This document shows, in pieces, positions 50,832 through 56,024 of a stretch of DNA of 64,000 nt. The translations under genes and the position numbers were made by a program. Within the stretch, counting starts at the first letter, position 1. Each line of letters opens with the position of its first letter. The stretch comes from Escherichia coli (GTDB lineage Bacteria; Pseudomonadota; Gammaproteobacteria; Enterobacterales; Enterobacteriaceae): NCBI RefSeq assembly GCF_044324875.1, contig NZ_CP172185.1; one strand, 5' to 3'. Below the pieces are notes generated by a model. The model made no database searches. It worked only from the letters and a program-made list of their open reading frames with translations, and was not told where the DNA came from.

Positions 50832-50924
50832 GTGTTCTGTCCATCCTTCAGTAATCGTTATCTTTTAAACCGTAGACCGACACCCTATCCACGTCGGTCT
50901 ACAGTGCAGGTGAAGCTTAAACTA

Positions 50925-52156: not shown

Positions 52157-54958
52157 TTATTCGACGTTCAGCGCGTCATTAACCAGATCTTGTTGCTGTT
52201 TCTGGTGAACGGACATATACCCTACCGCCGGAGAGGCGGAGGCCGGGCGGCCTGCATAACGCAGAGAAGCCCCAAACGGAATCACTTCACGGAAATGATG
52301 CTGGCTGCAGTACCATGCGCCCTGGTTGAGCGGCTCTTCCTGGCACCAGACAAAATCCTTGACGTGAGCAAACTGCTGCAACACTTCCTGCATCGCTTTA
52401 TGCGGGAACGGGTAGAGTTGCTCGATACGCACAATGGCGACATCGTGTTGATTGTTCTTACGACGTTGTTCCAGCAGGTCGTAATAAACCTTACCAGAAC
52501 ACATCACTACGCGCTTCACGCCCTTCGGATCAAGCTCGTCGATTTCACCGATGGCTGGCAGGAAGGTGCCGTTCGCCAGTTCTTCGAGGCTGGATACCGC
52601 CAGCGGATGACGCAGCAGGGATTTCGGCGACATCACGACCAGTGGACGACGCATCCCGCGCAACGCCTGACGACGCAGCATGTGGTAAACCTGTGCCGGG
52701 GTAGACGGTACGCACACCTGCATGTTTTGCTCAGCGCAAAGTTGCAGATAACGTTCCAGACGCGCGGAGGAGTGCTCCGGTCCCTGCCCTTCGTAACCGT
52801 GCGGCAGCAACATCACCAGGCCACACATCCGGCCCCATTTCTGCTCGCCAGAGGAGATGAACTGGTCGATAACCACCTGAGCACCGTTAGCGAAGTCACC
52901 GAACTGTGCTTCCCAGATAGTCAGAGTGCGTGGTTCTGCGGTGGCATAACCGTATTCAAACGCCAGCACTGCTTCTTCAGACAGTACAGAGTCCCAGACA
53001 CGGAACGCGCCCTGGCCGTTATGGATGTGTTGCAGCGGCGTGTAAGTGGAACCGTTAGACTGGTTGTGGATCACCGCGTGGCGGTGGAAGAAGGTACCGC
53101 GACCGGAGTCTTCACCCGACAGGCGAACCGGAATGCCTTCGTCAACCAGCGTGGCGTAAGCGAGGTTTTCCGCGCCGCCCCAGTCGAACAGTTTCTCACC
53201 GGCAGCCATCGCCTGGCGATCGCCATAAATCTTGGCAACGCGAGACTGCATTTCAACTGCTTCCGGCACCGTGCTGATGCGTTTAGCCAGTTCCTGCAGG
53301 CGCTTCATCTCAACTTTGTTCGGGTACTCTTCGTCCCATTCGTGGTTGAGGTACGGTGACCAGGTGAAAGAGTGCATGTTCATCGGACGCCACTCTGCTA
53401 CCACGCAATCGCCAGCATCCAGCGCATCGCGGTACAGGTTAACCATCTCGGTGGCATCTTCCAGCGTCGCGACTTTTTCTTGCTCCAGCTTGTCAGCGTA
53501 GATTTTGCGCGGCGTCGGATGTTTTTTGATTTTCTGATACATCAGCGGCTGGGTTGCGCTCGGCTCGTCGGCTTCGTTATGGCCATGACGGCGGTAGCAC
53601 ACCAGGTCGATGAAGACATCACGTTTAAAGGTGTTACGGAAATCGAGCGCCAGACGGGTCACAAAGGCAACGGCTTCCGGATCATCCGCGTTAACGTGGA
53701 AAATCGGTGCCTGAACCATCTTACCGATATCAGTACAGTACGGCGTCGAACGGGCATCCAGCGGGTTAGAGGTGGTGAAGCCAACCTGGTTGTTGATAAC
53801 GATACGTACCGTACCGCCAACTTCATAGCCACGCGCTTTCGACATGTTCAGGGTTTCCTGAACCACGCCCTGCCCGGTCACTGCGGCGTCACCGTGGATG
53901 GTAATTGGCAGCACTTTGTTGCTGCTCGGCTCATCAAGTCTGTCCAGACGGGCACGAACAGAACCGATAACTACCGGGCTTACAATCTCAAGGTGAGACG
54001 GGTTAAACGCCAGCGCCAGGTGCACCAGGCCGCCATCGGTCTGGAAGTCAGACGAGAAGCCCATGTGGTATTTCACGTCGCCTGTGCCAAGGTGTTCTTT
54101 ATGTTTACCGGCGAACTCGTCGAACAAGTCTTGCGGTTTTTTACCCAGCACGTTCACCAGCACGTTCAGACGACCACGGTGCGCCATCCCGAGAACCACT
54201 TCCCGGGTGCCGCTGTTGCCAGCGTGGCGGATCATCTCTTTAAGCATCGGGATTAACGCGTCACCGCCTTCCAGTGAGAAGCGTTTTGCGCCAGGGAATT
54301 TTGCGCCGAGGTAACGTTCAAGGCCTTCAGCGGCGGTCAGTTCGCTTAAGAAGCGTTTTTTCTCTTCGCTATTGAAAGTCGCGCGACCAGACTCGATACG
54401 CTGTTGGATCCAGCGTTTTTCTTCGGTGCTGGTAATGTGCATATACTCGGCACCAATCGGGCCGCAGTAGGTTTGCTTGAGGGCTTCCAGCAGCTCGCCG
54501 AGTTTCATGGTTTCTTTGCCGCTGGCAAATGAACCGACGTTGAAGGTCTCCTGGAAGTCTGCTTCGGTCAGATCGTGGAAAGACGGATCCAGATCGGCCA
54601 CTTTATCTTGCTGCCACAGTCCCAGCGGATCGAGATTCGCATGCTGGTGACCACGGAAGCGGTATGCGTTAATGAGCTGCAGGACTTTAACCTGCTTCAC
54701 ATTGGTGTCAGGGTCGGAGATCGTTGAAGAGTAACGTGAAGCGTCTTTCGCCAGGCGGCGGAAATATTCACGCGTTTGAGAGTGGAATTGATCCGGTTTG
54801 ACTCCCGTACCAGGTAACTGCTGGAACGTCGAACGCCAGTTAGCGTCAACCGAGTCAGGATCGGTTAAGAAGTCTTCATAGAGCTGTTCTATCCAGCTCT
54901 GGTTTGCGCCAGAGAGGTAAGAAGAGTCCAACCAGGCTTTCAAAGCGCTGTTCTGCAT
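52157..54958 (-). CDS. sucA: 2-oxoglutarate dehydrogenase E1
   Basis: 933 aa; synteny. Confidence 0.95.
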
Positions 54959-55120
54959 CGTGATCCCTTAAGCATCTTTTTTATGCTTACTTCGCCGTGG
55001 ATACTACCACGCACAGTGATGTGCGTGCCGGGGTTCACTTGCGAGCTCTTGTCTACGTAGTGGCTCGCGAAGGAACCTTTAAAAACTGTCTTAGTGTCAG
55101 GGGCAGTTTTTAAAGATTTC

Positions 55121-55303
55121 CTGCATTTCTTTTGTAGGCCGGATAAGGCATTCACGCCACATCCGGCGCTGTTTGCCTGATGCGACGCTTGCGCGTCTTA
55201 TCAGGCCTACGATTTCTGCATTTCTTTTGTAGGCCGGATAAGGCGTTCACGCCGCATCCGGCACTGGTTGCCTGATGCGACGCTTGTGCGTCTTATCAGG
55301 CCT
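55121..55303. repeat. Tandem duplication (period about 95 bp) of a REP/BIME unit in the sdhB-sucA intergenic region
   Basis: Two near-identical units starting ctgcatttcttttgtaggccggataaggc… at 55121 and 55216. Confidence 0.8.
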
Positions 55304-55307
55304 GGGT

Positions 55308-56024
55308 TTACGCATTACGCTGCAACAACATCGACTTGATATGGCCGATGGCGCGCGTCGGGTTCAGCCCCTTCGGACATACACTGACGCAGTTCATGAT
55401 GCTGTGACAGCGGAATACACTGAATGCATCGCTCAAACCGTCGAGGCGGCTGTCAGTCTCGGTATCACGGCTATCGATCAGGAAACGATATGCCGCTAAC
55501 AAGCCTGCCGGGCCGATAAACTTATCGGGATTCCACCAGAAAGACGGACAAGAGGTTGAACAACATGCGCAGAGAATACATTCATACAGCCCGTCGAGTT
55601 TTTCGCGCTGCTCTGGCATCTGTAAATGCTCGCGAGCTGGCGGATTTTGTCCATTATTCAACAGGTAAGGCTTAATTTTCTCATATTGCGCATAGAATTG
55701 TCCCATGTCTACCACCAAATCGCGGATCACCGGTAAACCTGGCAGCGGGCGAATCACAATCTTCTTGCCCGGCTGGTTGAGTGCCGAAATCGGGGTAATA
55801 CAGGCCAGACCATTCTTGCCGTTCATGTTCAGACCGTCGGAACCGCACACACCTTCACGGCAGGAACGGCGGAACGACAGGCTGGGATCTTTCTCTTTCA
55901 GCTGGATAAGCGCATCCAGCAGCATCATGTCGCGACCTTCATCCGCTTCCAGGGTGTAATCCTGCATACGCGGAGCATCATCAACATCCGGGTTATAGCG
56001 ATAAATTGAAAACTCGAGTCTCAT
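55308..56024 (-). CDS. sdhB: Succinate dehydrogenase iron-sulfur subunit
   Basis: 238 aa; Cys clusters. Confidence 0.95.
   Translation of the reverse strand: MRLEFSIYRYNPDVDDAPRMQDYTLEADEGRDMMLLDALIQLKEKDPSLSFRRSCREGVCGSDGLNMNGKNGLACITPISALNQPGKKIVIRPLPGLPVIRDLVVDMGQFYAQYEKIKPYLLNNGQNPPAREHLQMPEQREKLDGLYECILCACCSTSCPSFWWNPDKFIGPAGLLAAYRFLIDSRDTETDSRLDGLSDAFSVFRCHSIMNCVSVCPKGLNPTRAIGHIKSMLLQRNA

Follow-up and report, generated by a model that had tools for sequence, protein, structure and literature searches.

The spacer between sdhB and sucA in the Escherichia coli DNA analysed here (the window, a stretch of 64,000 nucleotides) contains a long direct repeat. This raises the question of what the repeat is, how it came to be duplicated, whether its copy number differs between strains and what it could do to a transcript that runs through it.

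Two REP-pair units follow sdhB

A repeat finder places one 91-nt copy at 55118-55208 and a second, in direct orientation, at 55213-55303. Their starts lie 95 nt apart and their sequences are 93% identical; a match of this length and identity cannot have arisen by chance. With Tandem Repeats Finder the array is recovered at 55115-55303 (period 95, 2.0 copies, 93% matches, score 336). Both copies carry one imperfect palindrome of the form GCCGGATAAGGC...GCATCCGGC (55138-55167 and 55233-55262) and one of the form GCCTGATGCGACGC...GCGTCTTATCAGGC (55175-55206 and 55270-55301). A sequence-only reading had seen here two near-identical units with a period of about 95 bp, each a pair of REP palindromes, and this observation is confirmed. 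Its label, a REP/BIME unit that is tandemly duplicated between sdhB and sucA, is also correct and can be made more exact: the array is of the BIME-2 type and consists of two Z2+Y units.

The array is wholly extragenic and occupies the sdhB-proximal (5') part of a 349-nt spacer (54959-55307). It is flanked by open reading frames of 238 and 933 aa, named sdhB and sucA, respectively, after the RefSeq annotation of genomes with 99.9% identity over 741 nt. Since both genes lie on the minus strand, the window must be reverse-complemented to give the sdh-suc transcript. Read along that transcript, a 95-nt unit opens with a Z2-type REP, (GTAG)GCCTGATAAGACGCGCAAGCGTCGCATCAGGC, passes through a 7-nt spacer into an inverted Y-type REP, GCCGGATGCGGCGTGAACGCCTTATCCGGCCTAC, and ends with the 18-nt linker AAAAGAAATGCAGAAATC. 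The spacer that separates Z2 and Y head to head is either AACCAGT or AAACAGC. REP 2 has CTAC at its end on the transcript strand, and only 6 nt lie between the TAA of sdhB and the first REP stem base (55301). The features of the locus are collected in Table 1.

Table 1. Features of the sdhB-sucA region, listed in the direction of transcription
Feature	Position	Strand	Evidence and remarks
sdhB CDS	55308..56024	minus	ORF list and RefSeq annotation; stop TAA 55310-55308
REP 1, Z2-type, sdhB-proximal unit	55270..55301	minus	Inverted repeat; K-12 comparison; hairpin -21.1 kcal/mol, z -7.5
REP 2, Y-type, proximal unit	55229..55262	minus	Inverted repeat; inverse to REP 1, 7 nt away; -21.3 kcal/mol
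Inter-unit linker AAAAGAAATGCAGAAATC	55211..55228	minus	Near-duplicate of the sequence after the last unit, 55115-55133
REP 3, Z2-type, distal unit	55175..55210	minus	Inverted repeat; GTAG foot intact; -21.9 kcal/mol
REP 4, Y-type, distal 'terminal-type' unit (AAACAGCG...GAATGCC)	55134..55167	minus	Inverted repeat; -19.7 kcal/mol
A/U-rich hairpin, 15-nt arms, 93% complementary	55074..55118	minus	Inverted repeat and RNA folds; outside the repeat
Remaining sucA 5' leader	54959..55073	minus	Hairpins 55040-55069 and 55008-55027 and sucA ribosome-binding region; RNA folds, allele comparison
sucA CDS	52157..54958	minus	ORF list and RefSeq annotation

The array is of the BIME-2 type

The feature is an ordinary BIME-2-type REP array of two Z2+Y units with the REPs in inverse orientation. 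Its palindromes are Y and Z2, the latter (GCCTGATGCGACGC..GCGTCTTATCAGGC) having the longer stem, and no Z1 occurs in the two-unit array. Both have close counterparts in the Y and Z2 REPs of the sucB-sucC repeat in K-12, a repeat named BIME-2 in the literature. BIME-2 elements have been described as z2 and y joined by a short linker and present in multiple tandem copies (Ton-Hoang et al. 2012), with copy numbers that differ between strains. Apart from the foot of one REP, the defining features that can be judged from sequence appear in the array: alternating inverse Z2 and Y, extragenic position, tandem arrangement, strain-variable copy number and units that are well conserved within one locus. 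The head-to-head linker is the short (S) form of 7 nt, not the long, IHF-binding L linker of BIME-1. Nothing essential differs from BIME-2; the array has in addition a CCAG foot and a tail-to-tail linker specific to the locus.

Three of the four REPs have a GTAG/CTAC foot. The exception is the sdhB-proximal Z2, which reads CCAG where K-12 and a further sequenced allele (L016) read GTAG. At 55302-55307 this foot is ACCCAGGCC in the window versus ACCGTAGGCC in K-12 and L016. GTAG is reported as required for recognition by TnpA-REP, and the proximal Z2, being without it, may thus no longer be a TnpA-REP substrate.

REP palindromes are dispersed through the genome, a 741-nt query around the site finding a median of at least 37 places per E. 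coli genome. The RefSeq annotation of MG1655 carries no REP features at the sdhB-sucA locus, and a search for literature naming REPs together with sdhB returned nothing relevant.

The Rfam model naRNA4 (RF02564) matches each unit on the plus strand, with 86.8 bits at 55232-55302 and 77.6 bits at 55137-55207 against a gathering score of 59.5, and these are its only matches within the 64-kb window. This orientation is antisense to the sdh-suc transcript, and the operon mRNA has the complement of naRNA4. Because both units exceed the gathering score, they might be taken as genes for small RNAs of the naRNA4 kind, which would bind HU and have an organising role in the nucleoid. The model, built on one Z2+Y unit of the REP325 array, simply describes a Z2+Y REP pair, however, and a scan of the spacer found no sigma-70-like promoter on either strand from which the antisense form, or any other, might be made. 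Moreover, a 2026 preprint finds no role in nucleoid compaction for REP325 or naRNA4. Hence we regard such small RNAs as extremely improbable.

Unit number varies among E. coli strains

Split-flank BLAST was used to determine allele lengths in those complete E. coli genomes, 5,425 in all, in which the locus is present. Queries of 200 or 300 nt combined one piece of sdhB with one piece of the sucA start, and the two pieces were joined only if the distance between them did not exceed 500 nt plus half the length of the query. Shifting the sdhB piece then yielded a cumulative length distribution from the '80% covered' counts. Local BLAST confirmed that this logic is sound for test loci. The resulting classes are given in Table 2 beside the spacers that were sequenced.

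Table 2. Length classes of the sdhB-sucA spacer in complete E. coli genomes and sequenced representatives
Class	Genomes	Share	Sequenced spacers
Up to about 255 nt	1,770	32.6%	200 nt, no REP, small hairpin GCCGGGGAAATCCCCCGGC in its place; 254 nt, one unit
256-330 nt (K-12 type)	2,268	41.8%	300 or 308 nt, K-12 type, Z2-Y-Z1
331-405 nt (two units)	1,051	19.4%	349 nt, two units, present window; 360 or 361 nt, two units, other downstream hairpin haplotype
Three units	about 206	3.8%	444, 455 or 456 nt, three units
Four units	about 128	2.4%	550 nt, four units, e.g. ATCC 25922 / Seattle 1946
Above 590 nt	2

The sequence-only reading had proposed a comparison of copy number across E. coli genomes, and the survey bears out its claim that the number varies between strains: alleles with 0, 1, 2, 3 and 4 units were sequenced, one further allele probably has five, K-12 has Z2-Y-Z1, and the arrangement is therefore not identical in all E. 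coli. About 33% of complete genomes have no REP at the site, a figure that equates with the class of up to about 255 nt, whose sequenced representatives include both the REP-free 200-nt spacer and the one-unit 254-nt spacer. The exact allele of the window (two units in a 349-nt spacer) accounts for roughly 9% of genomes as judged from 159 sampled rows. The ST131 strains EC958 and JJ1886 have two units and ATCC 25922 has four, and several O111:H2 and O45:H2 strains are REP-free among the rows listed.

A query for the inter-unit junction gave a separate count. It was found at 1,837 places in 1,377 genomes, with a maximum of four per genome, versus 1,842 places predicted from the class sizes. Among the E. 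coli genomes, sdhB-sucA is the only locus with the junction and plasmids have none. IS1397, an IS3-family element, is an insertion sequence that targets REPs, and one of the two genomes above 590 nt (NZ_AP046542.1; L009, locus 707-2502) has a two-unit array with IS1397 inserted in the first Z2 REP, at its loop; this insertion splits the operon. The second long allele is probably a five-unit array, since one genome shows four junction places.

Two ways of counting were abandoned. Allele counting by query coverage was dropped as joined pieces reuse the same stretch of the subject, such that a short allele 'covers' a longer query. A test meant to separate three-unit from four-unit alleles at a=100 left 225 genomes unjoined, versus 130 in a second design (a=150) whose figure is consistent with the junction arithmetic, and the first test was discarded because it conflicts with the sampled rows, with the junction count and with the 130-genome design. 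The roughly 95 genomes that were unjoined at a=100 and joined at a=150 may have a variant of sdhB around 55408-55507. Some RefSeq genomes (rows H81, H136, H183, H206 and H296) list a 'hypothetical protein' under the sdhB-sucA match; this may be a spurious open reading frame that spans the spacer.

These data also dispose of the idea that the duplication is an artefact of assembly or sequencing. Nothing speaks in its favour, and it is refuted, to our minds practically with certainty, because spacers of two-unit length occur in about 1,050 complete genomes and the sequenced examples show the same arrangement, some of them at 99.9% identity over 741 nt.

Turnover of the units

Across the sequenced alleles, which range from none to four units, the period is always exactly 95 nt, and the units fall into two kinds. 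A terminal unit (AAACAGCG...GAATGCC, then GCAGGAAATCTTT) ends every array examined in both E. coli and E. albertii. Terminal units of the two species differ at only 3-4 nt and are therefore orthologous. Internal units differ from one another at 0-2 positions within one genome and have lineage-specific changes in common, such as AACCAGAG and AAAAGGAATG in E. albertii and GAACGCTTT in another allele (L015). Such a pattern marks a single unit that has been amplified and homogenised locally. In the one-unit allele the 5' part of unit 1 is joined to the 3' part of unit 2, a chimera of the kind that a deletion by unequal exchange would leave.

The linker between the units resembles the sequence that follows the last unit, and the junction is found nowhere else in E. 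coli genomes, from which it follows that the duplication arose in place. The locus gains and loses whole 95-bp units, with unequal recombination or replication slippage as the likely routes. A further route of unit change could be TnpA-REP (RayT), the REP-associated transposase, which in vitro recombines BIME substrates into forms with added REPs.

The site after sdhB in related species

A scan of species-representative genomes yielded seven loci for comparison. E. albertii NBRC 107761 (L019) has four units in the 550 nt upstream of sucA, followed by a leader of the 360 type, and the species-specific substitutions shared by its internal copies indicate that the array has evolved in concert. 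A REP-free hairpin like that of the 200-nt E. coli allele is present in Citrobacter FP75 and On2M; the REP-free form is hence old and possibly ancestral. In Citrobacter MGH106 and Intestinirhabdus alba, other REP pairs stand directly after the sdhB stop. Indeed, a REP pair or another hairpin lies just past the sdhB stop in every enterobacterial genome examined, which suggests that a structured 3' boundary after sdhB has been retained across the enterobacteria.

These comparisons bear on whether the array does anything at all. It could be an essentially neutral, self-propagating repeat that turns over by recombination or RayT and leaves sdh and suc expression without meaningful change. About 33% of genomes are without the array and about 42% have a different combination of REPs, copy number changes frequently within lineages, and the units evolve in concert as those of a neutral minisatellite do, all of which fits such a repeat. 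The occupation of the post-sdhB site by a REP pair or hairpin throughout the enterobacterial genomes examined speaks against neutrality, however, as do the regulated internal terminator and the RNase III processing of the K-12 spacer, and we consider it a possible but doubtful account.

Neighbouring elements of the operon

The A/U-rich hairpin just past the array (55074-55118) is present in every E. coli allele examined, the REP-free one included. In the Citrobacter version the stem arms are conserved and the loop lengths vary. It is a candidate site for RNase III, as double-stranded RNA, or for other processing in the sucA leader.

Farther on, the hairpins at 55040-55069 and 55008-55027 exist in two haplotypes (compared in L003, L005, L006, L019, L020 and L023) that differ in sequence and both still fold. 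One has CGCGAGCC...GCTCGCA with the loop TCAC; the other has GCGGACGCAG...GTCCGC and a loop of the second hairpin that is 11 nt longer. Since both haplotypes also occur in Citrobacter, they represent either an old polymorphism or exchange between species.

The sucB-sucC spacer of the same operon differs from that of K-12 as well. Here it is 93 nt long (50832-50924) and contains a plain hairpin, GTAGACCG...CGGTCTAC, whereas in K-12 (L012, 141-414) it is 274 nt long and a two-unit BIME-2 lies inside the same hairpin. The operon thus has a second, independent REP presence/absence polymorphism. Elsewhere on the minus strand, the window holds seven tRNA genes with two RtT elements (24354-25252) and, adjoining this tRNA cluster, the CpoB/ybgF RNA thermometer (26178-26316), both standard for the region.

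RNA structure and the sdh/suc boundary

Folded as RNA, single REPs of the array reach -19.7 to -21.9 kcal/mol and one unit about -44 kcal/mol. The whole spacer folds at -157.8 kcal/mol with a z score of -10.6. A terminator scan of 54800-55500 found no hairpin followed by a U-run on either strand. Just past the array the transcript has a weak excess of C over G, too weak to serve as a hint of Rho utilisation.

Stable, G+C-rich hairpins and the mention of 'intrinsic termination' within the operon in one paper could be read as marks of a classical intrinsic (Rho-independent) terminator that divides the sdh and suc transcription units. We exclude this, as a very improbable reading, because no hairpin in the array is followed by a U-run. 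It is at odds, too, with the 10-kb sdh-suc read-through transcript documented in K-12, for which the sources include Cunningham and Guest 1998 as reported by the papers that cite it.

The best explanation, and one that we hold to be highly probable as a whole, is a length-polymorphic two-unit BIME-2-type array that most likely acts as a stabiliser and leaky attenuator at the sdh/suc boundary. Four hairpins starting 6 nt past the sdhB stop would block 3'-to-5' exonucleases, and the upstream sdhCDAB segment would survive; such protection would follow termination or endonucleolytic processing in the spacer. The same hairpins would attenuate read-through into sucABCD in a leaky, non-intrinsic and partly Rho-dependent manner. 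The first of them may also dampen translation termination of sdhB, since it lies within 15 nt of the stop codon. Translation of a gene is reported to fall when a REP follows its stop codon at fewer than 16 nt (Liang et al. 2015, as cited elsewhere), and the stop-to-stem distance of 6 nt places the array in the class so defined (REP within 15 nt).

The K-12 and REP325 literature makes the roles of mRNA stabiliser and attenuator the most likely ones for the array. In K-12 the sdh-suc operon has an internal terminator with partial, condition-dependent read-through and a secondary promoter. The sucA leader is cut by RNase III at three sites, and the small RNA GlnZ pairs further downstream in it. 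The strongest RNase III-dependent depletion of RNA-seq reads falls at NC_000913.3:758515, which by MG1655 coordinates is nt 110 of the K-12 spacer and lies inside the third REP (Z1), a placement relative to the REPs that rests on one RNA-seq peak position. These data concern another allele, Z2-Y-Z1, not the two-unit form. The REPs of K-12 are alike in standing a few nucleotides past the stop, and the first Z2+Y pair and the leader are near-identical. They differ in that the 300-nt K-12 spacer has three REPs, an atypical BIME, whereas the window has four (Z2-Y-Z2-Y) and is 49 nt longer. The RNase III-sensitive peak, moreover, lies in the Z1 REP, and the window allele is without Z1.

REP325 (naRNA4; yjdM-yjdN of K-12) is the best-studied REP array and resembles the present one in having tandem Z2+Y units inside an operon; the Rfam model derived from it matches both units here. 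It stabilises the mRNA of the upstream gene more than 160-fold in the operon context, attenuates the downstream gene in a partly Rho-dependent manner and gives rise to a ladder of RNAs that end at hairpins. REP325, however, has six units (12 hairpins) versus two here, the operon and its expression level differ, and the naRNA4 orientation is antisense at sdhB-sucA. A preprint on REP325 further stresses that what a REP does varies strongly with its context and that, across the genome, REPs show no association with longer mRNA half-lives.

REP hairpins between malE and malF, likewise genes of one operon, reportedly protect the upstream mRNA from 3' exonucleases, a finding said to go back to Newbury et al. 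in 1987. That stabiliser belongs to another locus and is not known as a copy-number polymorphism.

The proposal of the sequence-only reading that the units can affect mRNA stability and read-through between sdh and suc agrees with the published K-12 spacer data and the REP325 work. That the number of units grades the effect on expression is pure inference, plausible from the REP325 ladder. The array is dispensable and any effect must be modulatory, because a third of complete genomes are REP-free and two Citrobacter genomes have a REP-free hairpin at the site.

An action at the level of DNA has to be weighed against this. BIME-2 is a preferred site of gyrase, and the main role of the array could be to relieve supercoiling in a 10-kb, highly transcribed operon through gyrase binding and cleavage, with more units providing more sites. 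Gyrase cleavage sites are over-represented in BIME-2 elements, mainly at Y REPs, and the sucB-sucC BIME-2 of the same operon in K-12 is among the strongest examples. The sdhB-sucA REPs, however, are not named among the prominent sites of the cited study, and the strain of the window does without the sucB-sucC BIME-2, so that gyrase sites are evidently not required in the operon. As the main role this remains, in our estimate, a minority prospect. It would not exclude stabilisation and attenuation of the mRNA, to which a local effect on supercoiling is a possible addition.

Implications

The kind of element, the presence of REPs at sdhB-sucA and the variation of BIME-2 copy number between strains are already established. 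Allele frequencies, the analysis of unit classes and the comparisons with E. albertii and Citrobacter add detail, not novelty. The K-12 spacer, on which all work on RNase III, the terminator and GlnZ is based, represents about 42% of complete E. coli genomes, and it is advisable to check the allele before K-12 findings on post-transcriptional regulation of sucA are carried over to other strains. The natural variants with 0-4 units also provide material for testing, in an operon with high expression, how the number of REP hairpins affects attenuation and the stability of the mRNA.

A more far-reaching idea, which we think rather unlikely, is that unit number acts as a heritable, stepwise 'dial': through graded attenuation and RNA stabilisation it would set how much succinate dehydrogenase is made relative to 2-oxoglutarate dehydrogenase and succinyl-CoA synthetase. 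If it were true, lineages with the REP-free, K-12-form, two-unit and four-unit alleles would run measurably different stoichiometries of the TCA cycle, and units that come and go rapidly would be a source of regulatory variation in central metabolism.
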